Virus record (IMG/VR): IMGVR_UViG_3300021426_000080 | Span: 27,744-91,743 of that record | From: a virus | Lineage: Duplodnaviria; Heunggongvirae; Uroviricota; Caudoviricetes | Length of the DNA: 64,000 bases | Reading direction: 5' to 3' (one strand) | Part shown: piece by piece, positions 1-64,000 of the stretch | Position numbering within the stretch: position 1 is the stretch's first letter | Layout of the letters: every line of letters starts with the position of its first letter | Translations under genes and position numbers: made by a program | The notes under the pieces: model-generated | Databases searched by the model: none | The model's input: the letters and a program-made list of their open reading frames with translations, nothing else | Told to the model about the DNA's origin: nothing

Positions 1-2234
1 TCATTGTAGACGGAACGGAAGTAGGAACACAGCAAACAAGCGTATCCGGCAGACAGATGACATATACGCTTCCTGCGCAGGCTCATGGATCGCATAATAT
101 TCGAGTCTATTTCGAAGCAACAATCAACGATGAAACTGTCCGCAGTAATGAGCTTTACTACGAGTTCATGTCTATTGAACCTCTTAACGATCAAATCATC
201 ATCACGAGTTCCTTCAACATGGCGGAAGTCAGTCAGTTTTCGTCAGTCGTGATCCCGTATAGAGTCTATGATCCGATGAACGATCATACCGAAGTAAAGC
301 TTTATGTGAATGAGTCCCTTGTTTCCACACAGGACGTTGATCGTACGGAACAAAGCTTCACGTATCGTGCTTCAACAGCAGGTGATATTACTTTCAGTAT
401 TACTGCTGGAAACGTTGTAAAACGAATTCAGTTCCACGTAAATGAAACTGATATTGATATTGAAGCCGAAACCGAAGATCTTGTGCTTTATCTGAATGCT
501 CAGGGACGTTCGAATAACGAATCGACCCGTGATATTTGGCAGTACGAAAACCCATCGACCCATCAGATTATTAAAGCTCAGCTTTCGAACTTTAACTGGG
601 TTCTGGACGGTTGGCATACCGATGATGATGGCATTAATGTTATGCGACTCGTCGACGACGCAAGAATGACGATTCCATATCAGCTGTTTGGAACAGATTT
701 TAAGGCTGGCGGAAAGACGATCGAGATTGAATTTGCGACCAGACAGGTTTCGGATTATAGCGCTACGATTCTCAGCTGTTTCGCTGATAACATCGGTTTG
801 AAGATTACGCCGCAGTCAGTCCTGTTCAAGGGCGCCCAGAATGAACTTAGTACTCTTTACAAAGAGAACGAGCACATCAGACTGAGCATTGTGATTGAAA
901 AGCAGACCGCCAACCGCCTGGTTCTTATTTATATTAACGGCGTAATGTCGAGAGCGATTCAGTATGCCTCGGGCGAGCGATTTAGTCAGTTGAATCCTGT
1001 AGGCATTACTCTCGGATCCAACGACTGTGGCCTTGATATTTACAATATTCGAGTTTACGATAACGATCTTAATCGCCAGCAGGTGTTGGATAACTGGATC
1101 GCTGATACTCAGGTTGGAGAAATTATGCTGCAGCGTTATACACACAATCAGGTATATAACACAAGCGGTGAAATCACAACAGCAAATCTACCGTCCGATC
1201 TTCCGTATTGGATTCTTGAGGCTCCGGAACTCCCGCAGTATAAAGGCGATAAGAAGACGATTTCCGGATCCTTCACGGTTCCTGGAAATTCGGCAAAGTC
1301 CTTCACATTTACTGGCGTCGAGATTGACGTTCAGGGTACCAGTTCTGCGATTTATTATCGAAAGAACTATGACCTGAAATTTAAGAATGGGTTTGATACG
1401 GCTGCTGGAAATGTTCCGAATTACGGTATCCGTGCAGCGTCTATCCCGTTCAATCGCTTTGTTCTTAAAGCTGATGTCGCTTCGTCCGAATCGGCAAATA
1501 ATACAGAGCTTTCGATGTTCTATCATGACAGCTGTCCGTATCGTACTCCGGCTATGCAGGAAAATCCGAGAGTTCGTTATGGTATCGAGGGCATTCCTAC
1601 CGTTGTTTTCTGGTACAATCCGGACGATCAGACAACGACGTTCCTCGGAAAGTATAACTTTAACCTTCCGAAGAGAGCGCCTGGTCCTTACGGATATTCT
1701 ACGTCGGATAATACGATGGAGAGCTGGGAAGTTGAAAGAAACAACTCGGAGAATGTTAAGTTCCAGGATGATGACTTTGTATCTACGTCTGTGGATGAAC
1801 TTGGCCAGGAATACCCAACATGGTATGATGACTGGGAGGCAAGATTCCCGAGCGATGAGTGGCGTGACTACTCAAAACTGAAAGAGTTTGTCGGCTGGGT
1901 GAAATCTACGAGACGAGAGACTGCAACGAACGAGAATCTTCCTGAGCCCGTTATATTTAAACTTCGGACAACAGTTACGGTAAGTGCCTATCCTGACGAT
2001 CAAAGCTATACTGTAGAGGACGAGATTGTGGATGGTGTAAGCACCGGATACAAGATCATGACCTTTACGAAAGATACTCCTGCATATCGACTTACGAAAT
2101 TCCGCGCGGAAGCTCAGGATTATATGGAAGTCGACAGCGCAGTATTTTATTACCTTTTCACTGAGCTGTTCCTTATGATTGACTCACGTGCAAAGAATAT
2201 GTTCATGGGCTTTGATGGAAGCCTGATTGAATAA
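1..2234 (+). CDS. tail fibre / receptor-binding protein with ConA-like (LamG) lectin domain, 5' partial
   Basis: Reading frame is open from the window start (no in-frame stop before ATG 57). Motif LVLIYINGV...DIYNIRVYDNDLNRQQVLDNW is typical of LamG/ConA-like lectin folds. First gene of the tail-fibre block. Confidence 0.6.
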   Translation, partial: IVDGTEVGTQQTSVSGRQMTYTLPAQAHGSHNIRVYFEATINDETVRSNELYYEFMSIEPLNDQIIITSSFNMAEVSQFSSVVIPYRVYDPMNDHTEVKLYVNESLVSTQDVDRTEQSFTYRASTAGDITFSITAGNVVKRIQFHVNETDIDIEAETEDLVLYLNAQGRSNNESTRDIWQYENPSTHQIIKAQLSNFNWVLDGWHTDDDGINVMRLVDDARMTIPYQLFGTDFKAGGKTIEIEFATRQVSDYSATILSCFADNIGLKITPQSVLFKGAQNELSTLYKENEHIRLSIVIEKQTANRLVLIYINGVMSRAIQYASGERFSQLNPVGITLGSNDCGLDIYNIRVYDNDLNRQQVLDNWIADTQVGEIMLQRYTHNQVYNTSGEITTANLPSDLPYWILEAPELPQYKGDKKTISGSFTVPGNSAKSFTFTGVEIDVQGTSSAIYYRKNYDLKFKNGFDTAAGNVPNYGIRAASIPFNRFVLKADVASSESANNTELSMFYHDSCPYRTPAMQENPRVRYGIEGIPTVVFWYNPDDQTTTFLGKYNFNLPKRAPGPYGYSTSDNTMESWEVERNNSENVKFQDDDFVSTSVDELGQEYPTWYDDWEARFPSDEWRDYSKLKEFVGWVKSTRRETATNENLPEPVIFKLRTTVTVSAYPDDQSYTVEDEIVDGVSTGYKIMTFTKDTPAYRLTKFRAEAQDYMEVDSAVFYYLFTELFLMIDSRAKNMFMGFDGSLIE

Positions 2235-48295: not shown

Positions 48296-48591
48296 TGGTT
48301 TTAACGTTTATAGATAATTTCCGTTTTAAAGGCGGCGCGAAAGAATGCTCTGATTATAGAGCACTTCTAAATAGAACCGTAAGCTACCTTAATGAATTAC
48401 TTTACGCAAGAGGATACGTTACCGTAAGAGACCTAAACGATCAGTTAGGAAGAAAAAGCGCGTTTGATTCGGATGATTCTCTGTATGGATGGGAAGTACA
48501 GGATGGTCCTATCGAACTCAAGATGCTTCACGACGGAAAATTCAAATTGCATTATCAATTTGAAGCCAAAATTTTGACCTGCATGCTTTGA
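48295..48591 (+). CDS. hypothetical protein (98 aa)
   Basis: ATG overlaps the upstream stop. Confidence 0.4.
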   Translation: MVLTFIDNFRFKGGAKECSDYRALLNRTVSYLNELLYARGYVTVRDLNDQLGRKSAFDSDDSLYGWEVQDGPIELKMLHDGKFKLHYQFEAKILTCML

Positions 48592-49851: not shown

Positions 49852-50874
49852 ATGAAAGGTACTACTATCGCATTCGCAGCACTCGGACTTATTGATATTG
49901 GTATGATCGTTCTCGATCGTGCCGCAAATCGTCATGGCAGAAAGCTCGCTGAAGCTGAGGCAATCAAGAATCGCGGCGAAGAGGCCAATGCTGTTCTAGA
50001 GGAAGTTAAGAAGCGCTGCGATGCCTATGATGAGCTAATCAAGCGTGAGAAGGTGGAATTCAAGCAGAAGAGAGCTGATTGGCTCGAAGCAAATGCGTTC
50101 AACGCCAAGAAGAAAGATATTCTTGATGGCGTTCCGAATGGTCTCAACGAATTCAAGAAACAGATTGGATATTCTGATGTAATTCAGAGACTTACGGACG
50201 AATACAATGCCGGTGTCGAAGCCGTCAAGAACTCCATTGACTATGACGTAAACAAGAAGAAGTTTGAGAAAGCTATCGCCGATGCCAAGAGCCATTATGA
50301 CAGTCAGAAGGCGCTGTATGACTGTGCCGGCTCTGATATTTCTGATGATGCTATGAAGCTCAGACATGCTGCAGAAGAGGCCATGAATGCCAAGATCAAA
50401 GAGGCTAAGGCAAACCTTGATATTCTTGAGGGCAAGCTTAACGCTGAAGTCGAGAAGCTTACTCAGGTAAAGCAGAATGGCATTCGTGAACTCGAGGAGA
50501 AGATCGCGAAGGAGAAGATTCGTCTGGATCACAAGGCTGACCAGGAGCTCGAGGCACTGAACACAAAGCTCTCTGAAGCAGAACAGGATATTAACAATGC
50601 CATCCTGAATAAGCGGACCGGCGCGGATGCTGAAGCGGAGATTAATCACGCCGATGATATTCGTATCATCCGTGAGCAGAAGAAAGTTGATGCCAAGGCT
50701 GCGGAAGATATTTTCAATGCAAAGCCTGAGACCGTCAAGATTGCAGAATTCCTGAAGGGCCACAAGGTTCCGAAAGTGGTTGTGCCCATGTTCGGTGTTG
50801 TTAGCATGGCGCCTGTTGGATATTTGTCCTATCGCTGGCTCAAGTTCCTTGGGCAGATCATGAGGGCGATGTAA
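49852..50874 (+). CDS. membrane protein with long coiled coil and N- and C-terminal TM helices (340 aa)
   Basis: Leader TTGATATTTTGAACTCTTGAAAGGAGAACTGAAAAC then ATG. N-terminal TM IAFAALGLIDIGMIVL. C-terminal VVPMFGVVSMAPVGYL. Confidence 0.5.
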   Translation: MKGTTIAFAALGLIDIGMIVLDRAANRHGRKLAEAEAIKNRGEEANAVLEEVKKRCDAYDELIKREKVEFKQKRADWLEANAFNAKKKDILDGVPNGLNEFKKQIGYSDVIQRLTDEYNAGVEAVKNSIDYDVNKKKFEKAIADAKSHYDSQKALYDCAGSDISDDAMKLRHAAEEAMNAKIKEAKANLDILEGKLNAEVEKLTQVKQNGIRELEEKIAKEKIRLDHKADQELEALNTKLSEAEQDINNAILNKRTGADAEAEINHADDIRIIREQKKVDAKAAEDIFNAKPETVKIAEFLKGHKVPKVVVPMFGVVSMAPVGYLSYRWLKFLGQIMRAM

Positions 50875-51608
50875 TGAATCCAAAACTGATATTTACGGCA
50901 GCCAAGAAGAATCTTCCATCGATTCTTAGCTGGACTGCTGTAGGTGGCGTTGTTCTGACCGGGTGGCTTACCGATAAAGCTGCCCGGAAGTCAGATCCAA
51001 AGGAACCTTTTAAGAAGCACTGGAAGAATTATATTCCTCCGATCATTGCCGGCGTAGGCACAATCGCATGCGTCGTCGGTTCAAACTGTGCACATTTGAA
51101 GGTTGAAGCAGGACTTGCCGGAGCTGTAGCGTTTTATAAGGCAGCCAAAGAAGACCTTGAAATGGCCGTTTCTGAAGTATATGGAGAAGAAGGCCTTGGA
51201 CAAGTGAAGAAAGCAGCAAATGATATTAATCCTGATCTTTCGGCTATGTATCATGATGCGCCAAGAAGCATTCGCATGTTCGAGCCGTATACGAGCCAGT
51301 GGTTTTACACAACTCCTGAAGAACTTCTCTGGGCTGAGCTTACTGCAAACAAGATGCTGTCTCAAAGAGGCACTGTAAAGCTCAATGATATTTTGAAGCT
51401 TTATAAGAATTGCAAGCCAAAGCCAATTGGAGAAACTCTTGGCTGGAGCTGGGAAGATGAAATGTTTAATGAATCGGCCAGCTGGTACTGTAATGGCGGA
51501 TGGATTGATATTTGTCCTCAGTACGAGGAACGAAACGGAAAACGATGCTACGTTCTGGATTACGGAATCAATCCGATTGATATTTCGCAAATTTTACAAG
51601 GTGTTTAG
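50874..51608 (+). CDS. membrane protein, member of three-gene paralog family (with 51985 and 54645)
   Basis: Two TM helices then a C-terminal domain RGTVKLNDILKLYKN...LGWSWEDE. Compare DGYLSVNDWFCELN...LCWTAES and RGHVFLNEILDAIG...LGWCMGLGDD. Confidence 0.5.
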   Translation: MNPKLIFTAAKKNLPSILSWTAVGGVVLTGWLTDKAARKSDPKEPFKKHWKNYIPPIIAGVGTIACVVGSNCAHLKVEAGLAGAVAFYKAAKEDLEMAVSEVYGEEGLGQVKKAANDINPDLSAMYHDAPRSIRMFEPYTSQWFYTTPEELLWAELTANKMLSQRGTVKLNDILKLYKNCKPKPIGETLGWSWEDEMFNESASWYCNGGWIDICPQYEERNGKRCYVLDYGINPIDISQILQGV

Positions 51609-51716
51609 TAGAGAGATTAGTGACGCATTCACTGATATTTGGTGAGTTCCCGATAAAGCCGGGTTACATCTCTCTTAATTTTTGTGTGCTCGAAATGAGC
51701 AGAAAGGAGAATGGAA

Positions 51717-51860
51717 ATGAAAAACTTGACGTGTGGGATGTTGTTGATCTGTGGAGCGTGTCTGCTGATCGAGCTGCAGATGCTTGGAACTGATCTTCAG
51801 ATTCGAAAGCTGGAGAATAGGATTAATGAAATGACTCAGACAAAGGAGGATGCGGAATGA
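51717..51860 (+). CDS. small membrane protein (47 aa)
   Basis: RBS GAAAGGAGAATGGAA. TM LTCGMLLICGACLLI. Confidence 0.35.
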   Translation: MKNLTCGMLLICGACLLIELQMLGTDLQIRKLENRINEMTQTKEDAE

Positions 51861-51988
51861 AAGTACTTTGTGGAGCGGTTGGCGTATCAATTATATTTGC
51901 AACTGGATTCGTAGCAGGTGTCATTGCTGGTATTGCCATCGCTATGACTCCGGACGCGAAAGATTCGGTATCGGAGGATAAGCAATGA
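51857..51988 (+). CDS. small membrane protein (43 aa)
   Basis: RBS AAGGAGGATGCGGA. TM VGVSIIFATGFVAGVIAGIAIAM. Confidence 0.35.
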   Translation: MKVLCGAVGVSIIFATGFVAGVIAGIAIAMTPDAKDSVSEDKQ

Positions 51989-52797
51989 ATTTCTCAACAA
52001 TCGTAAAAGGATGTAAGATGGCCGTAAAATACAGCGGAAAGCAAATCGTGAAACACGCGCCTGGAATCTTGTGCGGATTTGGTACAGGAGGTGTCGGTTT
52101 TGCTCTCTGGCTTATGGCAAAGAAAGCTCCGGAAGCCAAGAAGGAACTCGATGCCGAAAAGGCCCAATGGGAAGCGACTGAAGATAAGGAGAAGCGAAAT
52201 AAAGCCGATTATATTTTTAAGCTTGTTCGCATTGGCGCAAAGCATTATTGGGTCGTGATCTCAGTTGCTACAGGAGCTATTGTGTGTTTCTGGCTCGCGA
52301 ATCGAATTAATTTCAAGCGGCTCATGTCTGCGTTGACAGCACTTGGAATCAGCACCAAGGGCAAGGAGGAGCTCGAGGAGAAGATCAAAGAACTGGACGG
52401 AGAGAAGCATCTGCAGAAAATTAAGGATGAGATCGATGCCGATAGAATCAAGAATGATCCTCCGGTCCAAGATAAGATTATTGATACAGGACTCGGAACG
52501 CATCTTTGCTATGAGGCAATCACCGGAAGATATTTCTATTCAAACATTGAGCGAATTAAACGGGCGGTTATTACGTGTCGAGACTATCTTCAAAAAGATG
52601 GATATTTGTCAGTGAATGACTGGTTCTGTGAATTAAATCTCGATACAACTGATTTGCAGCTCTGTTGGACGGCAGAGAGTATTGATGAAGTCAATGAGTT
52701 TGATATTGAGACGAGTTCTCAGCTTACTCCTGAAGGTGTTCCGGTCTTGGTAATCAGATACACGACGAACCCGACCATGGAGCGACGAGACTGGTAA
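51985..52797 (+). CDS. membrane protein, paralog family member
   Basis: See 50874..51608. Confidence 0.5.
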   Translation: MNFSTIVKGCKMAVKYSGKQIVKHAPGILCGFGTGGVGFALWLMAKKAPEAKKELDAEKAQWEATEDKEKRNKADYIFKLVRIGAKHYWVVISVATGAIVCFWLANRINFKRLMSALTALGISTKGKEELEEKIKELDGEKHLQKIKDEIDADRIKNDPPVQDKIIDTGLGTHLCYEAITGRYFYSNIERIKRAVITCRDYLQKDGYLSVNDWFCELNLDTTDLQLCWTAESIDEVNEFDIETSSQLTPEGVPVLVIRYTTNPTMERRDW

Positions 52798-52837
52798 CTG
52801 ATTGATATTCCAATAGGGGCTGTACGAGTATGCATAA

Positions 52838-52863
52838 ATCGCAAAAAATACAGTCCCTATAAT
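52838..52863 (+). promoter_or_regulatory. phage promoter motif (A)TCGCAA-N13-TATAAT
   Basis: ATCGCAAAAAATACAGTCCCTATAATGGTAGG. Confidence 0.5.
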
Positions 52864-52904
52864 GGTAGGAAACTACACATTATATTTAAAAGGAGAACAT
52901 GAAA

Positions 52905-53210
52905 ATGGGTCTGTTTAAGAAAAACAAAAAGCTTGAGGTAATCAAGATGGATGAGAATGGAAACGTGATTAATCCCAAACAGAAAAAGGAGAAAGGGAAG
53001 GATCTCGGAAAGAAATTGCTCATTGGAGCACTTGCTATCATTGGAGGTACTATAGCCTTCGTAGGAGTCGGTGCTGCAATGGCGATTGTTGACGAGAAGT
53101 CTTCCGGTAGTGACACGATTGATGTTGGGGACGGCACGATTACGTTCACTCCGAACGAAGACCAGAGCAACAAATCAGAGACAGAGTCTACTGGGACTTC
53201 TGAAGAATAA
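52905..53210 (+). CDS. membrane protein (101 aa)
   Basis: RBS AAAAGGAGAAC. TM LLIGALAIIGGTIAFVGVGAAMAIV. Confidence 0.4.
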   Translation: MGLFKKNKKLEVIKMDENGNVINPKQKKEKGKDLGKKLLIGALAIIGGTIAFVGVGAAMAIVDEKSSGSDTIDVGDGTITFTPNEDQSNKSETESTGTSEE

Positions 53211-53383
53211 TTGATATTCTACCACAAAGAGAAATGGGTTAAACAACTCACTTCTCTTTTGTCTTCGAAGTGAAACGGCATCGAAGTTCTAGAAGAGGAC
53301 TGAGATTGATATTTAACGCAAAATATTCAGCTCTCTTAATGAGGGAATAATTCCTCAGATATTTTGAAAGGAGCAATTTAATC

Positions 53384-53743
53384 GTGAAGAAAAAAGATGC
53401 TGTTGGGAAAGCGAAGCTCGTTGCAGAGATTGTCAGTACAGAAGGAGCTCAGATGCTTGCCTGTGGTCTCTGCCGATTGGTTCTTCCTCCTCAGGTTAAT
53501 ATCGTCGTTAAAGGCGGGATGCTTGTAGGAGGTTGGCTACTCGGTGGATGCCTTGGGGAGCATATGAAAGGATATTTGAACCGACAGATCGATGACGTAG
53601 CGGAATACGTTGAAGAGAGTGTCAAAAGAGTGAAGGAAGATATTGCTATCATTCAGAAAGAATCTGAAGAAACTGAAACCGAAAAGACTGATCAAACTGA
53701 TCAAACAAATGAAAATGATAAAGAAGGAGAAGACTTGGGCTAA
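53384..53743 (+). CDS. membrane protein (GTG start, 119 aa), acidic C-terminus
   Basis: Leader CAGATATTTTGAAAGGAGCAATTTAATC then GTG. Hydrophobic GMLVGGWLLGGCLG. Confidence 0.4.
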   Translation: MKKKDAVGKAKLVAEIVSTEGAQMLACGLCRLVLPPQVNIVVKGGMLVGGWLLGGCLGEHMKGYLNRQIDDVAEYVEESVKRVKEDIAIIQKESEETETEKTDQTDQTNENDKEGEDLG

Positions 53744-53888
53744 ACAGCCCACTTCTCTTTTGTCTTCGAGACTTACATAGTAAGTCAAGATAACGTTGAA
53801 CGCAGTGAAACAGAATCGAAGCTTTCGTAAAAAGCTGAGAAAACGCTGAGCGAAACGACATAGAATCAATTGATATTTCAAGGAGGTA

Positions 53889-54623
53889 ATGAATCACATG
53901 GCTGAAGTGCCAAAAGAAAGCCTTCGAGCGGAAGATATTGATTTTCTCTCGAATGCTCATAAGTATCGGGATGTTGGAAAAGAAAACAGTAATGATATTC
54001 AGGAAGAAAGTACTGATGAGACTCCAAAAAAGACTTTGAATGGCTCTGTCACTTCTAAAAAGCGGTCTCTTGGAAAACAATTCATTGATATTTTCTTTCG
54101 CAATGGTGCAAGCCCAAAGGAAATCAAACGATATGTTATCGAGGATCTGCTCGTACCGGCGATTCTTGAAAACATTGCGGATACCATTCAGACCGTGGTT
54201 GAGATGAGATTCTTTGGGGACACCTGTCGAAGCTCAAGAAGAAACCGAAAATCTGGAAACTCTACAGGATCCAGAATTAATTATGGTGGATATTTTGTCG
54301 GTAATGACAATCGAAGAGACAGATCAAGATCGAGTAACCGGGATCGTGATGATTCTTACCAGGAGCCTCTGGACGACTTTATATTTGATGACAGACGGGA
54401 TGCTGAGATGGTTCTGGTAGACATGAAGGAACTTCTCGATCAATACACTCGTGTAACTGTCGCTGATTATATTGATCTTCTAAAGCAATACGGCGTAAAA
54501 GTCCGTGATGCAGATCATACGGATCAGAAATGGGGCTGGAATGATCTCAGTGATGTAAGAGTGAAGCCGGCCAGAGGTGGAGGACACTATCTCGATCTTC
54601 CAAAAGAGTATCCTGTTGGATAA
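53889..54623 (+). CDS. RS/RD-rich basic protein (244 aa)
   Basis: Leader CAATTGATATTTCAAGGAGG. Alternative ATG at 53898. Low-complexity RSSRRNRKSGNS...RRDRSRSSNRDRDD. Confidence 0.45.
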   Translation: MNHMAEVPKESLRAEDIDFLSNAHKYRDVGKENSNDIQEESTDETPKKTLNGSVTSKKRSLGKQFIDIFFRNGASPKEIKRYVIEDLLVPAILENIADTIQTVVEMRFFGDTCRSSRRNRKSGNSTGSRINYGGYFVGNDNRRDRSRSSNRDRDDSYQEPLDDFIFDDRRDAEMVLVDMKELLDQYTRVTVADYIDLLKQYGVKVRDADHTDQKWGWNDLSDVRVKPARGGGHYLDLPKEYPVG

Positions 54624-54644
54624 ATTGAAAGGAGAATTATATTT

Positions 54645-55655
54645 ATGAAAGTAAAAGCACCTAAATTCGTGTTGGACGCGGTTGCAAAAGCCGGAGTAGC
54701 TGCCGGTAAAGCTGGTCTTAAACTTAAAGCGGCATCTCCGGAACTCATGTTGGCCGGTGGACTTATCGCTGGTGGAGCAGCTTTGGTGGCGGCCTGCATC
54801 GCAACTAAGAAAGTCGTTGAAAATAAGACAATCGCAAATGCTCAGGATAAGCTCGATGATATTCAGAAGAAGGCTGATGGAGCAATCAAGCAGCTGGACG
54901 AAGGCGACTTCTCCGGACTGGTTGGATATGACAATGTTGACGACTGCAAGAAAGATATTAACAAGAATCGTAAGATCGAAAGTCTGAGAGTATATCGTCA
55001 TTTAGCCTGGGAACTGGCTAAAAAGTATGGTCTTTCTGCGTTTCTATTTATGCTCTCTGTGGGCCTTATAATGGGCTCTCACGGCGTTTTGAAAAAGAGG
55101 TACATTTCCTCAACTTTGGCGTACAAAGCGCTTGACGAGGCTTATAAGGACTACAGGAAGCGTGTAAAAGAGGCAGTTGGGGAAGATAAGGAAAAGCATC
55201 TGTTTCTTGGCACTGAAGAGAGCGGCGAAACCACTGTTTATGACGAAAATGGCAATGAAAAGACCGTTAAAGATATTGTTAAAACTCAGGCTAAAAAGTA
55301 CTCGCCTTATGAATTCGATTGGAACGCTCAGACTGCTCCCGGGAATTGGGAAGCGAATTCGGATTATAATCTTATGTTCCTCAAAGGAATTCAGAATTAT
55401 GCCAATGACCTACTGCATTCGAGAGGTCACGTGTTTCTGAATGAGATTTTGGATGCAATTGGGCTTCAAAGGACGCAAGAAGGGCAGTCTTTGGGCTGGT
55501 GTATGGGCCTCGGAGATGATTTTGTTGACTTTGGACTCGAAGAATACTTCACCGATGAGTATTCTGATGCTTCCCAGGATGGATATTTGAAGAATATTCA
55601 CCTCGATATGAACTGTGACGGGAACATTCTGGCGTACGCGTTCAAGAAAAGATGA
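54645..55655 (+). CDS. membrane protein, paralog family member (336 aa)
   Basis: RBS TTGAAAGGAGAATTATATTT. See 50874..51608. Confidence 0.5.
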   Translation: MKVKAPKFVLDAVAKAGVAAGKAGLKLKAASPELMLAGGLIAGGAALVAACIATKKVVENKTIANAQDKLDDIQKKADGAIKQLDEGDFSGLVGYDNVDDCKKDINKNRKIESLRVYRHLAWELAKKYGLSAFLFMLSVGLIMGSHGVLKKRYISSTLAYKALDEAYKDYRKRVKEAVGEDKEKHLFLGTEESGETTVYDENGNEKTVKDIVKTQAKKYSPYEFDWNAQTAPGNWEANSDYNLMFLKGIQNYANDLLHSRGHVFLNEILDAIGLQRTQEGQSLGWCMGLGDDFVDFGLEEYFTDEYSDASQDGYLKNIHLDMNCDGNILAYAFKKR

Positions 55656-56377
55656 ATAAGTGGATATTTTTCGGTTTTGGGGTGGCTCTTGGCTCAGGAG
55701 TCACCTTTTTTGCCGTAAAAAAACACTATCGGGACGTTGCGTATCATGAAATTTCGGAAATGAGGGCATTTTATCGCGAGAAAAAGGCCGAATTGAAAGA
55801 AAAATATGACCCAAAAAGCGACAAAACTGACGCAACTGACTCAAAAAATGATGAAAAATCAGGAAATGAGCATCGTTATGTCAGCGGAAATACCGAAATT
55901 CAGAGCGTTTTGAATAGATATTCGGGCGGAAATCATGGTAATTTTGTCGTTGAACCGCATAAAAAAATCGGAAAAATCGGGGCAAAACGCAATGAAAATC
56001 ATGATATTTCGGACGAAAATGAGGACCATGATGACCGTTTTTATACTGAAGAAGGGGACGATCCCTATGATATTTTTGTGAGCCATGAAGCGCCTTCTGA
56101 GGGCTATGTAGAACAGCCATACCAGATTTCTGAGGAACAATTTGCAAGCGAAAAGCTGCATTATGATAAAGTTACCGTCGAATATTATGCTGACGGAATC
56201 GCCGTAATCGACGAAACTGACGAGATTTTAGACTCTTTGGAAGACCAAATCGGACCTTATATTTTGAGTAAACCGATCGAAGAGAATGAGATTTATGTCA
56301 GGAATGAAGCTCGAAGTACGGACTATTATATTCAGTTGAAAGAGACAAATTTCGTCTCTGAAGAAGGTTCAGATTGA
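55652..56377 (+). CDS. membrane-anchored acidic protein (241 aa)
   Basis: N-terminal TM WIFFGFGVALGSGVTFFAV. ATGA overlap. Confidence 0.45.
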   Translation: MNKWIFFGFGVALGSGVTFFAVKKHYRDVAYHEISEMRAFYREKKAELKEKYDPKSDKTDATDSKNDEKSGNEHRYVSGNTEIQSVLNRYSGGNHGNFVVEPHKKIGKIGAKRNENHDISDENEDHDDRFYTEEGDDPYDIFVSHEAPSEGYVEQPYQISEEQFASEKLHYDKVTVEYYADGIAVIDETDEILDSLEDQIGPYILSKPIEENEIYVRNEARSTDYYIQLKETNFVSEEGSD

Positions 56378-56883
56378 CCTACTTCGACTGGCTGGTGTAT
56401 CAGATTTCGCCAGACTATCATATGCGTGAACGCTACTCAGAACTGTTATTCGCTTTATATTCTACAGAGTTCTTTTGGGCGCTTCCAAGAGATATTAATC
56501 GTGCAAAGGATGGTCTGGATTTACGAAAACAATACGAACGTGAAACAGATGAAGGGGCTGATCTTTTCGGTCCCTGCACCTGTCTTGAGATGATGATCGC
56601 ACTGGCCATTCGATGCGAAAATGAACTAATGTATGACCCGGATTTTGGTGATCGGACAGACCAATGGTTCTGGATCATGATAGATAATTTGGGGTTGGAT
56701 CAGTTCGAAAATGACAGGTTTGATAAGGACGAAGTGGACTATATTTTGAACAGATTTATGAATCGGGAGTATGGTTCGAACGGCGAATTTTGCATGTTTC
56801 CAGGAACAGAATCCGTCAAAAATTTGAAAAAAATGGAGCTCGCCTATCAAATTAATTATTACGTAAAAATGATTTTGTGTTGA
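56374..56883 (+). CDS. hypothetical protein (169 aa)
   Basis: Overlapping start. Confidence 0.45.
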   Translation: MTYFDWLVYQISPDYHMRERYSELLFALYSTEFFWALPRDINRAKDGLDLRKQYERETDEGADLFGPCTCLEMMIALAIRCENELMYDPDFGDRTDQWFWIMIDNLGLDQFENDRFDKDEVDYILNRFMNREYGSNGEFCMFPGTESVKNLKKMELAYQINYYVKMILC

Positions 56884-57119
56884 AAAATCGTGAAAAAATG
56901 AGGTTTTGCGTCAGTTGCGTCACTTTTTTTTAGTACTACGCACGAGAAAAATATATGTTTTTATATATATAAAGGACGAAAAAAAACTGTCATTTTTGAC
57001 GCAAGCCATTTTTGGTGAATTTTTAGAAGAAAGGAGGGAGCAAGACGGATTTTGTAAAAGTCACGTGGAGAGGTCCGAAAAGGAAAGGCGATCCGATTGA
57101 GATATTTCCGATTTTTATT
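56884..57119. promoter_or_regulatory. candidate replication origin / regulatory region (AT-rich core flanked by inverted repeats)
   Basis: TTGCGTCA direct repeat (GCGTCAGTTGCGTCAC). Inverted partner TGACGCAA about 90 nt downstream. AT-rich core TATATGTTTTTATATATATAAAGG. Immediately upstream of the replicase. Confidence 0.35.
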
Positions 57120-60100
57120 GTGAAGAACAGCAAGGACTTGATGATACGAGGAAGCGACTTTTATGCGGTCTGGGATGAGCAACGAGGTGTATGGTCGACT
57201 GAGCAGGATGATGCCACCGGATTGATCGATGCTGAGATGGATGCATACAAAGCAAAGATGGAGAAAGAGAATCCTCAGTTTGCAAACGCAAGAATATTAT
57301 ATTTGTGGAACTCGGATACCGGAATGATCGATAAGTGGCATAAGTATGTTCAAAAGCAGCTTGTTGATAATTTTCATCCGTTGAATCAGAAGGTTGTGTT
57401 TTCGAATACAGAACCGCGACGTGAAGATTATTCGTCTTTTCATTTGCCTTACGCACTTGAGCCAGGAAGCACGGATGCCTGGGATGAAATGGTCAGAACA
57501 TTATATTCTCCTCCAGAACGCCATAAGATTGAATGGCTTATCGGATCAGTTGTAAGTGGCGATAGTAAGGAGCTTCAGAAATTTGGAGTGTTCTACGGTG
57601 ATTCAGGAACGGGTAAATCAACGATCCTTGATATTATCGCAAAAATGTTTAAAGGTTATGACTGCACATTTAATGCGAAAGCGCTTGGAAGCTCTACCAG
57701 CGAATTTGCGTTGGAACCGTTTAAGAACAATCCATTGGTTGCGATTCAGCAGGACGGCGATCTGAGTAAGATTGAAGATAACGCCAGATTGAATAGTCTT
57801 GTGTCCCACGAAGAAATCATTGTGAATGAAAAGCATAAGAGCCAGTATGGAAGCAGGTTCTATGCGATGCTTTTCATGGGAACTAATAAACCGGTTAGAA
57901 TTACGGATTCAAGAAGCGGTATTATTCGAAGACTAATTGATATTTCTCCTACAGGAAAGCTTATTCCGAAGAAACGGTATTTGAAATTGAAGGAACAGAT
58001 TGACTTTGAGCTCGGAGCTATTGCGTGGCATTGCCGTGAGGTGTTTCTTGAGGATCCGTATTATTACGACACCTATACGCCGCAGGCAATGATCGGAGCC
58101 ACAAACGATTTCTACAACTTTATGGAAGAGTATCTGGATGAATTCCTTAGAAAAGATTACACGACTCTGAAAGAAGCATGGACGAAGTACCAGATTTACT
58201 GCAATGAAGCCAAGGTTCCATATCCGTATTCGATGCGATCCTTCAAGGAAGAGTTGAAGAACTACTTCCGCGAGTACAAGGAAAGATATCGTACGGACAG
58301 CGGAGAGCAGCTGCGGAAGTGGTACGGAGGATTGAGAAGATCGAAGTTCGGAATGGAAGAGTTGGTTTCTGAGGAATCTGATGACATTGAAGTAAAAGAT
58401 ATTGCTGATGAGGATGCTGCGGAAGCGGAAGGGTATAGCAATTGGATTAAGCTCGATGAGCGCCCCAGTCTTTTGGATGATATTCTAGCTGATTGTCCTG
58501 CTCAGTATGCTGTTCCGACAGATACTGGCGGGGATCGTCCGGAATTCAAATGGGAGAAATGTAAGACCAAGCTTTGCGATCTGGACACATCAAAGCTGCA
58601 TTACATTCGTTTTCCAATTGATATTCAGAACCATATTGTAATCGACTTTGATCTTAAAGATCCGTCAACCGGCGAGAAATCTCTTGAAAGGAATTTAGCG
58701 GAAGCTTCGAAATGGCCGAAGACATATGTTGAAACCAGTCGGAGCGGAAAAGGTCTTCATTTGCATTATATTTACAAAGGCGACGTTACAAAGTTAAGCC
58801 GAATCTATGACGATAATGTTGAAGTGAAGGTATTTACAGGTAATTCGTCTTTGAGGAGACAGCTAAAGCTCTGCAATGATATTCCGATTGCTGAGATTAA
58901 TTCTGGATTGCCTATGAAGGAGGAGGCGCGAGTGATAAACTTTGATGGTTTGAAGTCTGAGAAGGCCCTTCGAACCGCAATAAAAAGGAATTTAAACAAA
59001 GAGATCCACGCTGACACAAGATCGAGCGTGGATTTTATATTTAAGATCCTGAACGATGCGTATGAATCCGGAATGCATTATGACGTTACCGATCTTCGTC
59101 CTGCGGTGCTTGGGTTTGCTGCAAAAAGCAGTAATCAGTCTGCATATTGTATTAAGCTCGTAACTAAGATGAAGTTCCAGTCAGAAGATATTTCGGAAGA
59201 TACGGCATTTTCCGATGACGATGAACTCGTATTCTTTGACGTTGAAGTGTTCCCGAATTTCTTCGGCGTTGTCTGGATGACAGATACCGGTAATCCGGTT
59301 AAGATGATCAACCCGACAGCAAAAGATATTGAGAAGCTTTGTGAGAGAAAGTTGGTAGGATTCAATAATCGCGAGTATGACAACCACATTCTGTATGCCA
59401 GGATGATGGACTATGATAATTACGGTCTGTATGTTCTTTCGCAGAGAATCATAAGCGGCAGCAAGAATTCTAAGTTTAGGGAAGCATACAATCTGTCTTA
59501 TACAGATATTTACGATTTTGCTTCCAAGAAGCAGAGCTTGAAGAAATGGGAGATCGAGCTTGATATTCATCATCAAGAACTTGGACTTCCGTGGGATCAG
59601 CCGGTTCCTGAAGAGTTATGGGATAAGGTTATGGACTATTGTGTGAACGATGTCGTTGCTACAAAGGCAACGTTTCATGCGTTGAGTGCGGATTTCGTTG
59701 CAAGAGAGATTCTTGCAGATATTTCCGGGCTTACCGTAAATCACACAACAAATCAGCATACAACCAAGATAATCTTCGGCGATGATCCGAATCCTCAGAT
59801 CCAGTTTGTGTATACGGATCTTTCTAAGATGTTTCCTGGGTACGAGTATAACGCAATGGGAATCGATCCGAAAAGATATTCCGGAAAGATCGTTCAGGGT
59901 AAGTCCATCTATCGTGGAGAGGATCCTGGGGAAGGTGGACGAGTTTATGCTCAGCCTGGGATGTATGAGAACGTTGCACTTCTTGATATTGCTTCCATGC
60001 ATCCGTCAAGCATCGAGAATCTGAATCTATTCGGAGATAAGTATACGAAGCGATTCAGCGATCTGAAGAAGATCCGAATTCTTATTAAGCATGGCGATTA

Positions 60101-61088
60101 CGAAGGAGCTGCCAAACTGTTTGACGGGAAGCTTACTGGATATTTGCAGGATAAGACACAGGCAAAGGCTCTTGCTCAGGCTCTGAAGATTGTAATTAAC
60201 AGTGTATACGGTTTGACCTCTGCCAGCTTTGATAATAAGTTCCGCGATCCAAGGAATGTTGATAACATCGTTGCAAAGCGTGGAGCGCTATTTATGATCG
60301 AGCTTCAGAAGGCCGTTGAGGAGAAAGGCTATACAGTTGCACATGTTAAGACCGATTCCATCAAGATTCCGGATGCAAATAACGAGATCATTGATTTCGT
60401 AATGAAGTTCGGAGAAAAGTATGGATATACGTTCGAGCACGAAGCAACTTATGAAAAGCTTTGCCTAGTAAACGAAGCCGTGTATATTGCAAAAGATATT
60501 TCTGATGGGCATTGGACAGCCACAGGAACTCAATTTCAGGTTCCATACGTGTTTAAGACGTTGTTTAGTAAAGAGCCGATTGAGTTTAAGGATGTCTGCG
60601 AGACTAAGAGTGTTAAGACTGCTTTATATTTGGACTTCAACGAGGATCTTCCGAATGTTGAAGATAAAGAAGATCGTCTTCAGAAGCTTCTCAAGAAGTA
60701 TGGGCTGACGATGAGTCAGATTAATGGATATTTGGAAACCGGTGATGCTCCGGATCTTCCAGAGGAATCTGGCACTGCTCTGATGGAAGCCTCTGAATTG
60801 GTAAAAGATATTCGAGCCGGACATGATTACAGATTCATCGGACGTGCAGGATCGTTCTGCCCAGTAATCAATGGCGTTGGTGGTGGATATTTGATGCGAG
60901 AGAAAGACGGCAAGTATTCATTTGCAACAGGAGCAAAAGGATATCGGTGGATGGAAGCCGAAGTTCTTAGAGCTCTTGGAACTGAAGAAGCAATGCGCAG
61001 AATTAATCGAAAGTATTACGCTGCGCTTGTAGATGACGCAATTGCCACAATCTCCGAGTATGGAGACTTTGAGGCCTTTGCGTCTTAA
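57120..61088 (+). CDS. fusion replicase: SF3/D5-type P-loop helicase core + AEP prim-pol domain + 3'-5' exonuclease + family-B DNA polymerase
   Basis: Walker A: VFYGDSGTGKST. AEP motifs VIDFDLKD and SGKGLHLHYIY. Exo I FFDVEVFPNFF and Exo III YCVNDVVAT. PolB motif A DIASMHPS, motif B KIVINSVYG, motif C VKTDSI. GTG start from the track; alternative ATG 57141. Confidence 0.75.
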   Translation: MKNSKDLMIRGSDFYAVWDEQRGVWSTEQDDATGLIDAEMDAYKAKMEKENPQFANARILYLWNSDTGMIDKWHKYVQKQLVDNFHPLNQKVVFSNTEPRREDYSSFHLPYALEPGSTDAWDEMVRTLYSPPERHKIEWLIGSVVSGDSKELQKFGVFYGDSGTGKSTILDIIAKMFKGYDCTFNAKALGSSTSEFALEPFKNNPLVAIQQDGDLSKIEDNARLNSLVSHEEIIVNEKHKSQYGSRFYAMLFMGTNKPVRITDSRSGIIRRLIDISPTGKLIPKKRYLKLKEQIDFELGAIAWHCREVFLEDPYYYDTYTPQAMIGATNDFYNFMEEYLDEFLRKDYTTLKEAWTKYQIYCNEAKVPYPYSMRSFKEELKNYFREYKERYRTDSGEQLRKWYGGLRRSKFGMEELVSEESDDIEVKDIADEDAAEAEGYSNWIKLDERPSLLDDILADCPAQYAVPTDTGGDRPEFKWEKCKTKLCDLDTSKLHYIRFPIDIQNHIVIDFDLKDPSTGEKSLERNLAEASKWPKTYVETSRSGKGLHLHYIYKGDVTKLSRIYDDNVEVKVFTGNSSLRRQLKLCNDIPIAEINSGLPMKEEARVINFDGLKSEKALRTAIKRNLNKEIHADTRSSVDFIFKILNDAYESGMHYDVTDLRPAVLGFAAKSSNQSAYCIKLVTKMKFQSEDISEDTAFSDDDELVFFDVEVFPNFFGVVWMTDTGNPVKMINPTAKDIEKLCERKLVGFNNREYDNHILYARMMDYDNYGLYVLSQRIISGSKNSKFREAYNLSYTDIYDFASKKQSLKKWEIELDIHHQELGLPWDQPVPEELWDKVMDYCVNDVVATKATFHALSADFVAREILADISGLTVNHTTNQHTTKIIFGDDPNPQIQFVYTDLSKMFPGYEYNAMGIDPKRYSGKIVQGKSIYRGEDPGEGGRVYAQPGMYENVALLDIASMHPSSIENLNLFGDKYTKRFSDLKKIRILIKHGDYEGAAKLFDGKLTGYLQDKTQAKALAQALKIVINSVYGLTSASFDNKFRDPRNVDNIVAKRGALFMIELQKAVEEKGYTVAHVKTDSIKIPDANNEIIDFVMKFGEKYGYTFEHEATYEKLCLVNEAVYIAKDISDGHWTATGTQFQVPYVFKTLFSKEPIEFKDVCETKSVKTALYLDFNEDLPNVEDKEDRLQKLLKKYGLTMSQINGYLETGDAPDLPEESGTALMEASELVKDIRAGHDYRFIGRAGSFCPVINGVGGGYLMREKDGKYSFATGAKGYRWMEAEVLRALGTEEAMRRINRKYYAALVDDAIATISEYGDFEAFAS

Positions 61089-61123
61089 TTGATATTTTTC
61101 AAATTTGAAAGGAGAATTTAACC

Positions 61124-61606
61124 ATGGCAAGAACAGATGTACCTAACATTAGCATTGACAACGCACAGATTCGTTTCCGTAATTTTACTGGAGAGCCGAC
61201 GAAGTTCGACAAAGCCGGAGGAAAGAGAACGTTCAGCGTTATTCTTGACGCCGAAATGGCAGACAAGCTTCGTGATGACGGATGGAATGTAAAGTCCTGG
61301 GAGCCCGATGGAGCTGATGAGCCGATCTATCATCTTCCGGTTGAGATTTCGTATAAGATATATCCTCCGAAGGTGTGGATGATCTCTGGGAATAAAAAGA
61401 CCATGCTTCAGGAAGATACAATTTCTGCTCTCCAGTATGCTGAATTTACTAAAGTTCAGCTTATTATCCGTCCTTATTGCTGGGAAGTGAACGGCAAGTC
61501 TGGCATTAAGGCCTATGTCAAAGCGATGTATGTAACCATCGAGGAAGACGAATTCGAGAAAGAGTATCGGAACTTCGAGGATGATGAAGACGATCTTCCG
61601 TTCTAA
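61124..61606 (+). CDS. putative phage ssDNA-binding protein (DUF2815-like)
   Basis: Leader TTGATATTTTTCAAATTTGAAAGGAGAATTTAACC then ATG. Acidic C-terminal tail EDDEDDLPF, typical of SSBs. Position next to the polymerase. Confidence 0.45.
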   Translation: MARTDVPNISIDNAQIRFRNFTGEPTKFDKAGGKRTFSVILDAEMADKLRDDGWNVKSWEPDGADEPIYHLPVEISYKIYPPKVWMISGNKKTMLQEDTISALQYAEFTKVQLIIRPYCWEVNGKSGIKAYVKAMYVTIEEDEFEKEYRNFEDDEDDLPF

Positions 61607-61615
61607 GATATTTAT

Positions 61616-61650
61616 AGGGGCTGTCTGAAATATGGCAGCCTCTTTTTTTT
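61616..61650 (+). terminator. rho-independent terminator
   Basis: GGGGCTGTC-N9-GCAGCCTC followed by T8. Confidence 0.6.
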
Positions 61651-61673
61651 AGATATTTGAAGAGGAGCGAACT

Positions 61674-62918
61674 ATGCCATCGTTTTTATACGATTATCAA
61701 ATAGACGCTATTAATCGAATGCGAAATGGCAGTATTCTATGTGGAAAAGTTGGATCCGGAAAGTCAAGAACTTCTATTGCTTATTATTTCATGAAAGAAT
61801 GTGGCGGCTCCGTAATAAATGAGTATATACCGATGTGTAAAACGGTTAATCTGTTTATTATTACTACTGCACGAAAAAGGGATACAAAAGAATGGGAAGG
61901 AGAACTCGTTCCATTCTTGATATCCGCAGATCATCCCGAAGATACGATCTATCAAGATCTTGAAGTTCACATCGATTCATGGAACAACATAGCAAAGTAT
62001 GTTGGAGTAAAAGACTCATTCTTTATATTTGATGAGCAGCGTGTTGTTGGAAGAGGCGCTTGGGTTAAAGCGTTCTTAAAGATTACAAAAGCAAATCATT
62101 GGATTTTACTGTCGGCAACGCCTGGCGATACTTGGATGGATTATGTTCCTGTTTTTATAGCAAATGGATATTTTAGAAACAGAACCGAGTTCAATGAGAG
62201 GCATGTTGTGTTTAGTCGATTTGCGAAGTATCCTCAAGTTTCTAAATATTTGAACGAAGGTCGATTAATTAGATATAGAAACGAGATCCTTGTTACAATG
62301 GATTATCAGAAGCCAACCAGAACTCATGAAGTAATAGTGGATGTCGACTACGATCGAGCTGAATACAAAGATATTATGAACACGCGTTGGAACATTTACA
62401 AAGATCAACCAACTACAAACGCTGCTGAGCTTTGCTACGTTCTTAGAGAGTCTGTCAATTCCGATCCAAGCAGGATCCAAGCGGTTCTTGATATTTTAAA
62501 AGATCATCCAAAGGTCATAGTGTTTTACAATTACAACTATGAGCGAGAGGCTTTGAGGAATGCTCCTTATGGAAAAGATATTTCAGTTGCTGAATGGAAC
62601 GGCGATAAGCATCAGTTAATTCCTAAAACTGATAAGTGGGTGTATCTGGTTCAGTATACAGCAGGAGCCGAAGGCTGGAACTGCATAGAAACAGATACTA
62701 TGATATTTTACTCTTTGAATTATTCATACAAAATCATGACTCAGTCGGCCGGAAGGATTGATCGAATGAATACTCCGTTTACTGATTTGTATTATTACAA
62801 GTTGAAATCAAATAGTCCTATAGATATTGGCATTTCGCACGCGCTTCGAAAGAAACAGAAGTTTAATGAGAACAAATTCTTTGATTCTTTTGATTCGCAA
62901 AAAAAACATCCCTTATAA
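61674..62918 (+). CDS. SNF2/DEAD-like superfamily-2 helicase
   Basis: RBS GAAGAGGAGCGAAC. Motif I GKVGSGKSRTS. Motif II FIFDEQR. Motif III LLSATPG. Motif VI QSAGRIDR. Confidence 0.7.
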   Translation: MPSFLYDYQIDAINRMRNGSILCGKVGSGKSRTSIAYYFMKECGGSVINEYIPMCKTVNLFIITTARKRDTKEWEGELVPFLISADHPEDTIYQDLEVHIDSWNNIAKYVGVKDSFFIFDEQRVVGRGAWVKAFLKITKANHWILLSATPGDTWMDYVPVFIANGYFRNRTEFNERHVVFSRFAKYPQVSKYLNEGRLIRYRNEILVTMDYQKPTRTHEVIVDVDYDRAEYKDIMNTRWNIYKDQPTTNAAELCYVLRESVNSDPSRIQAVLDILKDHPKVIVFYNYNYEREALRNAPYGKDISVAEWNGDKHQLIPKTDKWVYLVQYTAGAEGWNCIETDTMIFYSLNYSYKIMTQSAGRIDRMNTPFTDLYYYKLKSNSPIDIGISHALRKKQKFNENKFFDSFDSQKKHPL

Positions 62919-62967
62919 TAGAGGGGATATACCTCTTCTTTATTTTTTTAAGCAGGAGGTATGTCTG

Positions 62968-63288
62968 ATGCTGGAAAGCAGATTCCAGGCTAAATTGATT
63001 AAAGAACTAAAAGATCGGTTTCCAGGATGTATCGTTCTTAAGAACGATCCGAATTACATTCATGGATTTCCCGATCTTTCTGTTTTTTATCAAGATAAAT
63101 GGGCTTGGCTTGAAACGAAACGAAGCTCGGATGCTTCTCACCGTCCTGGCCAAGACTATTACATTTCGCTAGGTAAAAAGATATCCTACGCGAGCTTCAT
63201 TTGTCCAGAGAACAAAGAGGAGGTACTGGATGAACTTCAACAAGCATTTCAACCTCGAAGGAAAACACGCGTTTCTCGGAGCGTCTAA
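62968..63288 (+). CDS. VRR-NUC domain nuclease
   Basis: RBS AGGAGG 8 nt upstream of ATG 62968. GFPDLSVFYQDKWAWLETK matches the VRR-NUC G.PD...E.K pattern. Confidence 0.55.
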   Translation: MLESRFQAKLIKELKDRFPGCIVLKNDPNYIHGFPDLSVFYQDKWAWLETKRSSDASHRPGQDYYISLGKKISYASFICPENKEEVLDELQQAFQPRRKTRVSRSV

Positions 63289-63784
63289 GTACCACTGGAT
63301 TAACTACGACGAAGAGAAACTGATCAATGCATATCGAAATTTTGCAAGAGTTCAACGAGGAACAGAACTTCACGATTTTGCGAAACAAGCGATTACTCTT
63401 GGAATCAAACTTCCGAAGTCAAAGAAAACGTTGAATATGTATGTCAACGATGCGATTGGTTTTCAGATGACTCCGGAACAGCCTTTATATTATTCGGAGA
63501 ATTGCTTTGGAACTGCCGATGCGATTTCGTTTAAGAACAATTTCCTTCGTATTCACGATCTAAAGACCGGAGATACTCCGGCCCATATGGAACAGCTCAT
63601 GATATATGAAGCTCTGTTTTGTCTTGAGTATGACAAAGATCCGAATCGATTTGATTCAGAGCTTCGTATTTATCAGTTGGATGAAGTAATGGCAGAGACC
63701 CCTGATCCTAAAGATATTGAGTTCATTATGGACAAGATCATCTTGTTTGATCAGTGTCTTAATAAAGTGAAGGAAGAAGGATAA
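63230..63784 (+). CDS. PD-(D/E)xK-type nuclease (phage exonuclease/recombination nuclease candidate)
   Basis: RBS GAGGAGGTACTGG. Putative D...E.K in GTADAISFKNNFLRIHDLKTG. Confidence 0.4.
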   Translation: MNFNKHFNLEGKHAFLGASKYHWINYDEEKLINAYRNFARVQRGTELHDFAKQAITLGIKLPKSKKTLNMYVNDAIGFQMTPEQPLYYSENCFGTADAISFKNNFLRIHDLKTGDTPAHMEQLMIYEALFCLEYDKDPNRFDSELRIYQLDEVMAETPDPKDIEFIMDKIILFDQCLNKVKEEG

Positions 63785-63789
63785 GAATC

Positions 63790-64000
63790 ATGGACGATAG
63801 TCAACGTGGTAGAAAGATATTTGTCGCAATCGACAGATTGAACGATCGGTTCCTTGAACACTATGGAACTCCAAGGCATTCTGGAAGATATCCTTGGGGT
63901 TCTGGTAAGAATCCTCAAAGAAACAAAAACTTTCTTTCAAGAGCTAAGGACCTTGAAAAGCAAGGACTTACTCAAAAGCAGATTGCAGAAGCCTTCGGCA
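63790..64000 (+). CDS. protein with RYPWG motif and HTH (LTQKQIAEAFG), 3' partial - possible terminase small subunit/regulator
   Basis: RBS GAAGGAAGAAGGATAAG. Runs off the window end. N-terminal motif shared with 15116..15289. Confidence 0.4.
   Translation, partial: MDDSQRGRKIFVAIDRLNDRFLEHYGTPRHSGRYPWGSGKNPQRNKNFLSRAKDLEKQGLTQKQIAEAFG

Follow-up and report, generated by a model that had tools for sequence, protein, structure and literature searches.

The replicase gene and its modules

The 64,000-nt window analysed here (positions 27,744 to 91,743 of IMG/VR record IMGVR_UViG_3300021426_000080) is phage DNA. Near its right end it carries a long open reading frame (ORF) that joins, from N- to C-terminus, a superfamily 3 (SF3) helicase of the D5 type, an archaeo-eukaryotic primase (AEP), a helical accessory domain of the primase (aHD, the alpha-helix domain) and a DNA polymerase of family B (PolB) with its 3'-5' exonuclease. 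The encoded protein very probably belongs to the HelPrimPolB family, the "four-in-one replicase" typified by GP55 of Lactococcus phage 1706, and would serve a temperate tailed phage of gut Firmicutes as its main replicase. The features of the locus are collected in Table 1. The initial annotation, which had been made from the letters alone, described a single chain of 1322 residues; that ORF stands in the program-made list with its GTG start, and a script found each of the motifs the annotation had named just where it had placed them. Exo II, which it lacked, was added.

Table 1. Features of the replicase locus and other named genes of the window (residues of the replicase are numbered from the listed GTG)
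Feature	Nucleotides	Strand	Residues	Identity to GP55	Remarks
Shine-Dalgarno sequence AGGAGG	57032..57037	+			7 nt upstream of the candidate ACG start; read from the sequence
ACG, probable true initiation codon	57045..57047	+			Homologue of the Met, Val or Leu start elsewhere in the family
Replicase ORF as listed	57120..61088	+	1322 codons		GTG is the first canonical start; stop at 61086-61088
N-terminal beta/alpha region and D5-type SF3 helicase module	57045..58424	+	-24..435	30% (N-terminal region); 38% (SF3 helicase core); 23% (helicase C-terminal part)	
TIGR01613 / DUF5906 core of helicase module			141-367		
Walker A / P-loop VFYGDSGTGKST	57588..57623	+	157-168		K166 = GP55 K189
Acidic linker between helicase and primase	58365..58436	+	416-439		Disordered, little conserved; pLDDT <50 at model residues 441-464
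AEP (PriS-like / PrimPol-like) primase catalytic domain	58482..58955	+	~455-612	57%	
AEP motif I (DxD), VIDFDLKD	58638..58661	+	507-514		D511 = GP55 D509
AEP motif II (SGxGxHxH), SGKGLHLHYIY	58743..58775	+	542-552		
aHD, alpha-helix accessory domain of the primase	58956..59189	+	613-690	50%	Y654, F666 = GP55 Y655, F667
3'-5' proofreading exonuclease subdomain	59190..59819	+	691-900	44%	
Exo I, FFDVEVF	59232-59252	+	705-711		
Exo II, GFNNREYD	59358-59381	+	747-754		
Exo III, YCVNDVV	59637-59657	+	840-846		
Family B polymerase palm, fingers and thumb	59820..61085	+	901-1322	53%; 24% (C-terminal 150 residues)	
PolB motif A, DIASMHPS	59985-60008	+	956-963		
PolB motif B, KIVINSVYG	60186-60212	+	1023-1031		
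PolB motif C, VKTDSI	60345-60362	+	1076-1081		
Candidate KxY (K1273-G-Y1275)	60936-60944	+	1273-1275		Putative assignment
Phage ssDNA-binding / annealing protein	61124..61606	+			Pfam PF24083, 2e-46; phrog_4787, 7e-55; corresponds to phage 1706 gp66
SNF2/SF2-type helicase	61674-62918	+			phrog_62, 4.5e-61
Endonuclease	within 62827-63288	+			phrog_93, 2e-13
PD-(D/E)XK-like exonuclease	63230-63784	+			phrog_3953, 3e-78
Multidomain endolysin	8889-10469				
Tyrosine integrase	14071-15123				

Residues 2-1321 of the protein match positions 28-1285 of the 1304-position PHROGs profile phrog_4210 ("DNA polymerase") with 1795 bits. This end-to-end match, the motif set and the invariance of the catalytic residues (below) are together far beyond chance. 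For the helicase, the Pfam family DUF5906, the P-loop core of P4/D5-type helicases, passes its gathering score at residues 158-264 (E = 8e-14), the NCBIfam C-terminal (helicase) domain of P4-family primases matches residues 141-367 (E = 3e-15), and residues 97-409 partly match the helicase halves of several PHROGs "DNA primase" families. The module holds Walker A, Walker B, sensor 1 and the arginine finger of D5-like SF3 helicases and lies at the N-terminus. A PriS-like AEP with motifs I to III follows it: residues 504-572 partly match phrog_3022, in its N-terminal AEP part (E = 1.4e-5), and the Pfam Prim-Pol family gives E = 0.049 on the whole protein and E = 0.0045 on the isolated AEP and aHD segment, yet both values are below threshold. 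Pfam DNA_pol_B is likewise sub-threshold on the whole protein (E = 2e-3). Residues 690-892 partly match a polymerase exonuclease region in PHROGs, the exonuclease subdomain matches phrog_1252 (1e-40), and NCBIfam models of E. coli Pol II match residues 940-1083. The PDB was searched by sequence with three queries: the protein alone, a profile of the family and the AEP and aHD segment in isolation. Only the palm of E. coli Pol II was recovered (phmmer 5e-5; family profile 5e-6), with no match to an AEP or a helicase. Structure prediction was needed.

Two AlphaFold2 models were built from family alignments, one from nucleotide 57045 to residue 690 and the other of residues 680-1322, with a mean pLDDT (the predicted local confidence) of 81 and 79, respectively. 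When compared with the PDB by Foldseek, the N-terminal half resembles monkeypox virus (MPXV) E5, the SaPI5 primase-helicase, African swine fever virus (ASFV) PrimPol, the C-terminal region of the NrS-1 protein and vaccinia D5 (E = 1e-8 to 1e-6), and the C-terminal half resembles the PolBs of 9N, KOD, Tgo and Pyrobaculum, E. coli Pol II and Pol alpha (E down to 1e-13). Between the AEP and the exonuclease lie four helices (model residues 639-650, 658-674, 682-693 and 699-708, that is, residues 614-683 of the protein), which make up the aHD. Thus, the assignments of the initial annotation hold: the SF3 helicase by profile, fold and invariant Walker A; the AEP by its recovered fold and invariant DxD and H547, with Pfam sub-threshold; and the proofreading exonuclease and PolB by the Foldseek matches to archaeal PolBs, Pol II and Pol alpha.

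Conservation was read from a family alignment of 57 sequences that are 60-98% identical to the window protein. Invariant residues are G160, G163, T164, G165, K166, S167, T168, T255-N256 and R270-R271 in the helicase; D509, F510, D511, H547, E568 and K570 in the AEP; F666 in the aHD; D707, E709, N749, Y753, D754, Y840 and D844 in the exonuclease; and D956, K1023, N1027, Y1030, G1031, T1078 and D1079 in the polymerase. G543, G545 and H549 of AEP motif II are kept in at least 90% of the sequences, and the columns of the linker at residues 416-439 are without conservation. Because the catalytic residues are invariant across the homologues, all four catalytic centres are under selection.

Relation to GP55 and mode of action

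The helicase-primase-PolB fusion was first described by Kazlauskas et al. in 2016, in gp55 of Lactococcus phage 1706 (PMC4889955). In 2020, Kazlauskas et al. named the group HelPrimPolB and described it as divergent within the EpsilonN-like PolB clade and prevalent in metagenomes (PMC7544198). Zhang, Lu, Zhu and Huang (NAR 2025; PMC12205980) then reported that purified GP55 has helicase, primase, exonuclease and polymerase activities, and counted more than 1000 homologues, mostly in human-associated phages. With the family recognised, named and biochemically characterised in this way, the window protein is a further member of it, and its architecture was already known.

How close is the kinship? 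GP55, taken from the phage 1706 record (L001) and compared directly, aligns with the window protein by BLASTP in a single collinear alignment over about 1198 residues, with 41% identity and 872 bits. The residues examined by mutation in GP55 map as K189 to K166, D509 to D511, Y655 to Y654, F667 to F666, D712/E714 to D707/E709 and D949 to D956, and every residue proved essential in GP55 is kept in the window protein. According to the GP55 study (PMC12205980), helicase activity and strand displacement depend on UTP or dTTP, and K189A is without helicase activity; D509A abolishes synthesis of RNA primers, which are 2-22 nt long and preferably initiated with GTP at 5'-CCAAC-3'; the aHD, a new alpha-helix domain, is needed for priming, with Y655 and F667 essential; D712A/E714A has no 3'-5' exonuclease activity; and D949A is polymerase-dead. 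The protein dimerises via its helicase domain, its primase and polymerase cooperate in trans, and on ssM13 DNA it makes RNA primers and elongates them de novo.

One might still suppose that one or more of the modules have decayed, the helicase being used, for example, just to oligomerise or to bind DNA, or the AEP being an inactive scaffold, which would make the protein a PolB that carries vestigial extra parts. The helicase is indeed the least conserved module relative to GP55, at 23-38% identity, GP55 is reported to be a dimer where SF3 helicases are typically hexameric (PMC12205980), and the AEP is sub-threshold in Pfam. However, Walker A, the sensor 1 TN, the RR finger, DxD, the motif II His, Exo I to III and Pol A to C are invariant or nearly so among the 57 homologues, the helicase and AEP folds are both recovered, and in GP55 the modules are each active and separable by mutation in the account given (PMC12205980). 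Degeneration is therefore improbable.

A second alternative concerns the polymerase, which could be a protein-primed enzyme like that of phi29, with the AEP serving something else than replication priming, for example repair or translesion restart. Its PolB part is compact (about 630 residues), and GP55 is reported to have phi29-like strand displacement with very long products, its authors having aligned it with phi29 polymerase (PMC12205980). On the other hand, the best 50 of the 232 Foldseek matches of the C-terminal half with E <= 0.001 are all RNA- or DNA-primed PolBs (archaeal B1 type, Pol II and Pol alpha), the EpsilonN-like clade in which HelPrimPolB is placed is one of primed PolBs (PMC7544198), and GP55 makes and extends its own RNA primers. 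Profile scans of the downstream neighbour proteins brought up no terminal-protein gene beside the replicase. Protein priming is thus very improbable, even more so than the loss of a module.

If the window protein works as GP55 does, then its D5-type helicase would unwind duplex DNA by nucleotide hydrolysis (UTP or dTTP in GP55), giving strand displacement, and by orthology the same module would also mediate dimerisation. The AEP, which presumably needs the four-helix aHD, would lay down short RNA primers at loosely defined template sites, and the PolB, in cis or in trans within the dimer, would extend primers as short as 4 nt while the exonuclease proofreads. The replicase probably acts as a dimer, with primase and polymerase able to act in trans. 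The downstream single-stranded DNA-binding (SSB)-like protein, superfamily 2 (SF2) helicase and two nucleases probably complete a replication-recombination module. With helicase, priming, extension and proofreading on one chain, such an enzyme could start and complete DNA synthesis de novo from dNTPs and NTPs. For the window protein, we infer the activities, nucleotide preference, oligomeric state and priming-site preference from orthology with GP55, while the order of the modules, their folds, the catalytic residues and the collinear homology are features of the protein itself.

Some observations weigh against this reading. By sequence alone the AEP is weak, being below the Pfam gathering score and without an AEP match in the PDB sequence searches; the model of the C-terminal half has low confidence in parts of the thumb; and identity to GP55, the sole characterised member, is only 41%, falling to 30% in the N-terminal region, 23% in the C-terminal part of the helicase and 24% in the last 150 residues. 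Because of this low identity, nucleotide preference, oligomeric state and priming specificity may differ from those of GP55. Lastly, a canonical GTG start would drop 25 conserved residues, so that the exact N-terminus is provisional.

Integrity and start of the reading frame

Could so long an ORF be an artefact, in which a frameshift or an error of sequencing or assembly has joined separate helicase, primase and polymerase genes? A few homologues are shorter (P0038 with 1070 residues, P0056 with 932 and other short representatives), and most of these are on short contigs and look like fragments. Yet when 50,697 phage records were searched by tblastn, 269 matched, and in 252 of these at least 80% of the query is covered in one place, with an identity of 49-53%. 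Full-length carriers include Faecalibacterium phage FP_oengus, Rhodococcus phage ReqiPepy6 (gp072), many Gordonia, Arthrobacter, Streptomyces and Microbacterium phages, and phages of Lactococcus, Listeria and Enterococcus, under labels such as "DNA primase/polymerase" or "helicase/polymerase". In a collection of 5.8 billion proteins, which gave at least 8000 candidates, practically all of the best 120 clusters among the matches listed are of full length, and in metagenomes the complete chain is encoded by several hundred protein clusters. A further 12 loci, in bacterial genomes or metagenome-assembled genomes (MAGs), carry a homologue at 51-67% identity (Blautia, Lachnospiraceae, Peptostreptococcaceae, Ruminiclostridium, Oscillospiraceae, Erysipelotrichaceae and others). 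The linkers are in frame throughout the aligned homologues, and GP55 is reported to have been expressed and purified as one active polypeptide (PMC12205980). The unbroken chain in isolated or assembled phage genomes, metagenomic clusters and bacterial loci rules out a frameshift fusion, for which there is next to no chance; the check for such an error that the initial annotation had asked for thus comes out in favour of a genuine fusion.

The same annotation called the protein an uncommon all-in-one replisome. This is apt for the design but not for its abundance, since the architecture is common in gut-phage metagenomes. The primase module, for its part, appears essentially confined to it: an exhaustive search with the AEP and aHD segment alone gave 412 clusters at 50% identity, 214 of them with E <= 1e-30, and the best 150 of the 412 are mostly of HelPrimPolB size (1240-1520 residues) with the module at about 470-700. 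Shorter matches resemble fragments.

Where does translation of the replicase begin? The conserved protein sequence runs 25 codons 5' of the listed GTG, which makes 57045 the most likely beginning of the coding region. These codons (57045-57119) encode the peptide TDFVKVTWRGPKRKGDPIEIFPIFIV, to be compared with MDFLKxxWRxxKKxGPxEIYPxF in the family, ahead of the SKDLMIRG segment, and the AlphaFold2 model shows this stretch of 25 residues as two beta strands of good confidence. An in-frame TAG stands at 57024-57026, six codons 5' of the ACG, and there is no ATG, GTG or TTG in frame between it and the GTG at 57120. Judged from the sequence, initiation is thus probably at the ACG. Five close relatives (L002, L003, L016, L017 and L019), which come from independent samples, keep the arrangement AAAGGAGG-N7-ACG; L018 has the same Thr residue at the start position, L008, a more distant copy in an Oscillospiraceae MAG, also has ACG there, and other lineages have ATG, GTG or TTG at the homologous position. 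An upstream TTG was considered as a shared start and rejected: L002 and L003 have it in frame, but in L017, L019 and the window the reading frame is closed by a stop 5-6 codons ahead of the ACG.

Gene callers give inconsistent N-termini within the clade. We lean, if only slightly, towards the view that the replicase of this clade is translated from a conserved ACG 7 nt after AGGAGG, which would be a start rarely documented in bacteria and phages and may keep the level of replicase low, and that gene callers misannotate its N-terminus clade-wide. In E. coli reporter studies, near-cognate starts such as ACG give no more than about 1% of the initiation seen with AUG. With initiation this weak, an ACG start would imply strong translational attenuation. 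A search of the literature library used here on ACG initiation in phages or bacteria found no relevant report.

The region before the helicase (57045-57539, residues -24 to 140) forms a small beta/alpha domain that is highly conserved in the family. A fragment of it resembles DUF1902 / TTHA1013 (HicB-like) with E = 4.5e-4, below the gathering score, and with 0.78 against the PDB sequence; this match was judged too weak to name a fifth domain. The available text of the GP55 study does not set the region apart as a domain of its own (PMC12205980).

Genomic setting and comparison with known systems

Downstream of the replicase, the ssDNA-binding or annealing gene also adjoins the replicase in the relatives L002, L003 and L016-L019, and the order helicase-endonuclease-exonuclease at 61674..63784 is that of gp67-gp69 in phage 1706. 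The endonuclease ORF (62827-63288) shares 92 nt with the SF2 helicase gene, and only from residue 47 onwards does it match its PHROG; translation probably starts about 40-45 codons downstream of the listed TTG (62827). A scan for promoters and terminators around the replicase gene gave counts not above shuffled expectation. Near the right end of phage 1706, orf75 (27083-30172) is annotated as a 1030-residue "RNA-dependent RNA polymerase", and L002 encodes, downstream of the replication module, an 894-residue protein with faint helix-turn-helix or sigma-like matches. Just upstream of the replicase are two paralogues of DUF6353 / phrog_2152, of unknown function (51985-52797 and 54645-55655). Relatives have one to three copies in the same position, with three in L002 (276-1004, 1161-2024 and 3682-4596) and one in L003; together with genes matching phrog_4079, phrog_4695 and phrog_4678 they form a conserved, uncharacterised companion set.

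Nearly all sizeable ORFs of the window are on the + strand, GC skew is steadily positive, and the relatives sit on contigs of 40-99 kb. The left end holds large proteins of unknown function. Two ORFs there, 57-2234 and 2227-4371 (+; 725 and 714 residues), overlap by 8 nt in different frames and match positions 699-1295 and 1530-1935 of one 2494-position profile, phrog_14959, also of unknown function; a frameshift, programmed or erroneous, may have divided a single giant gene, or one gene may have given rise to both. A tRNA-like element without an anticodon lies at 11533-11598 (+), with the lysis genes on one side and the integrase on the other; it scores 44.1 bits with the Rfam tRNA model (gathering score 29) and is not reported as a tRNA by ARAGORN. 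It has normal acceptor, D and T arms, an anticodon arm reduced to a 2-bp stem and a 6-nt loop (CC-AAAAAC-GG), and a T-run after it; a remnant related to att, a decoy and a pseudogene are all conceivable. Stretches of kilobase scale, among them 37900-40200 and 45400-48300, hold only very short + strand ORFs (30-90 residues) arranged head to tail, as is typical of phage early or moron regions.

What does the window add? For the field it brings little that is new, the helicase-primase-PolB fusion having been on record from 2016 and its enzymology having been taken apart in 2025. It does add a divergent member from a temperate phage lineage of the gut Clostridia type, one that may help comparisons of nucleotide preference, oligomeric state and priming specificity and that is a candidate single-enzyme reagent for DNA amplification. 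It also adds the evidence that the AEP and aHD module keeps essentially to this architecture, and a point for annotation, namely that an ACG start probably leads to wrong calls of the N-terminus in this clade.

Among known systems, GP55, with which the HelPrimPolB group was founded and whose phage 1706 is a Fremauxvirus, has the same order of SF3 helicase, PriS-like AEP, aHD and exonuclease with PolB, a similar size (1317 residues, against 1322 or 1347, depending on the start), the same VKTDS variant of Pol motif C and the same downstream SSB, helicase, endonuclease and exonuclease genes. However, the window protein has a 14-residue insertion before Pol motif A, its gene probably starts with ACG rather than ATG, and the SSB gene follows it directly, whereas about 10 small ORFs separate gp55 from gp66. 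The hosts also belong to different lineages, the relatives of the window being of the gut Clostridia type, and the activities have been measured for GP55, whereas the window protein is known from its sequence and models. The helicase/polymerase of FP_oengus, the closest isolated phage by tblastn, and the actinobacterial-phage proteins (the "DNA primase/polymerase" of Gordonia, Arthrobacter, Streptomyces and Microbacterium phages and ReqiPepy6 gp072) are full-length homologues of the same architecture at 49-53% identity, but they come from other hosts, are known from annotation only and have no nucleotide similarity to the window. Indeed, megablast of positions 50000-64000 against the 50,697 phage records gave no match, so there is no close sequenced phage.

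The D5-type primase-helicases (vaccinia D5 and MPXV E5, ASFV C962R, SaPI5 Pri-Rep and the primase-polymerase of phage NrS-1) share the folds of the window protein but not its architecture. In these the AEP precedes the helicase and no PolB is fused, whereas here the P-loop (residues 157-168) comes before AEP motif I (residues 507-514) and a PolB occupies the C-terminus; the AEP does not come first. The initial annotation had correctly described this as the reverse of the usual D5-type order, since 94% of primase-helicase fusions have the primase on the N-terminal side (PMC4889955). According to the GP55 study, the D5-type proteins also have a PriL/HBD-type helper domain in place of the aHD and are typically hexamers, where GP55 is a dimer (PMC12205980). 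The only other helicase-primase-polymerase single chain that has been described is Pas55 of Actinoplanes phage phiAsp2, a fusion of an SF3 helicase, a DnaG primase and PolA (PMC4889955). By its description it stands apart, since its DnaG/TOPRIM primase and family A polymerase are non-homologous to those of the window protein.

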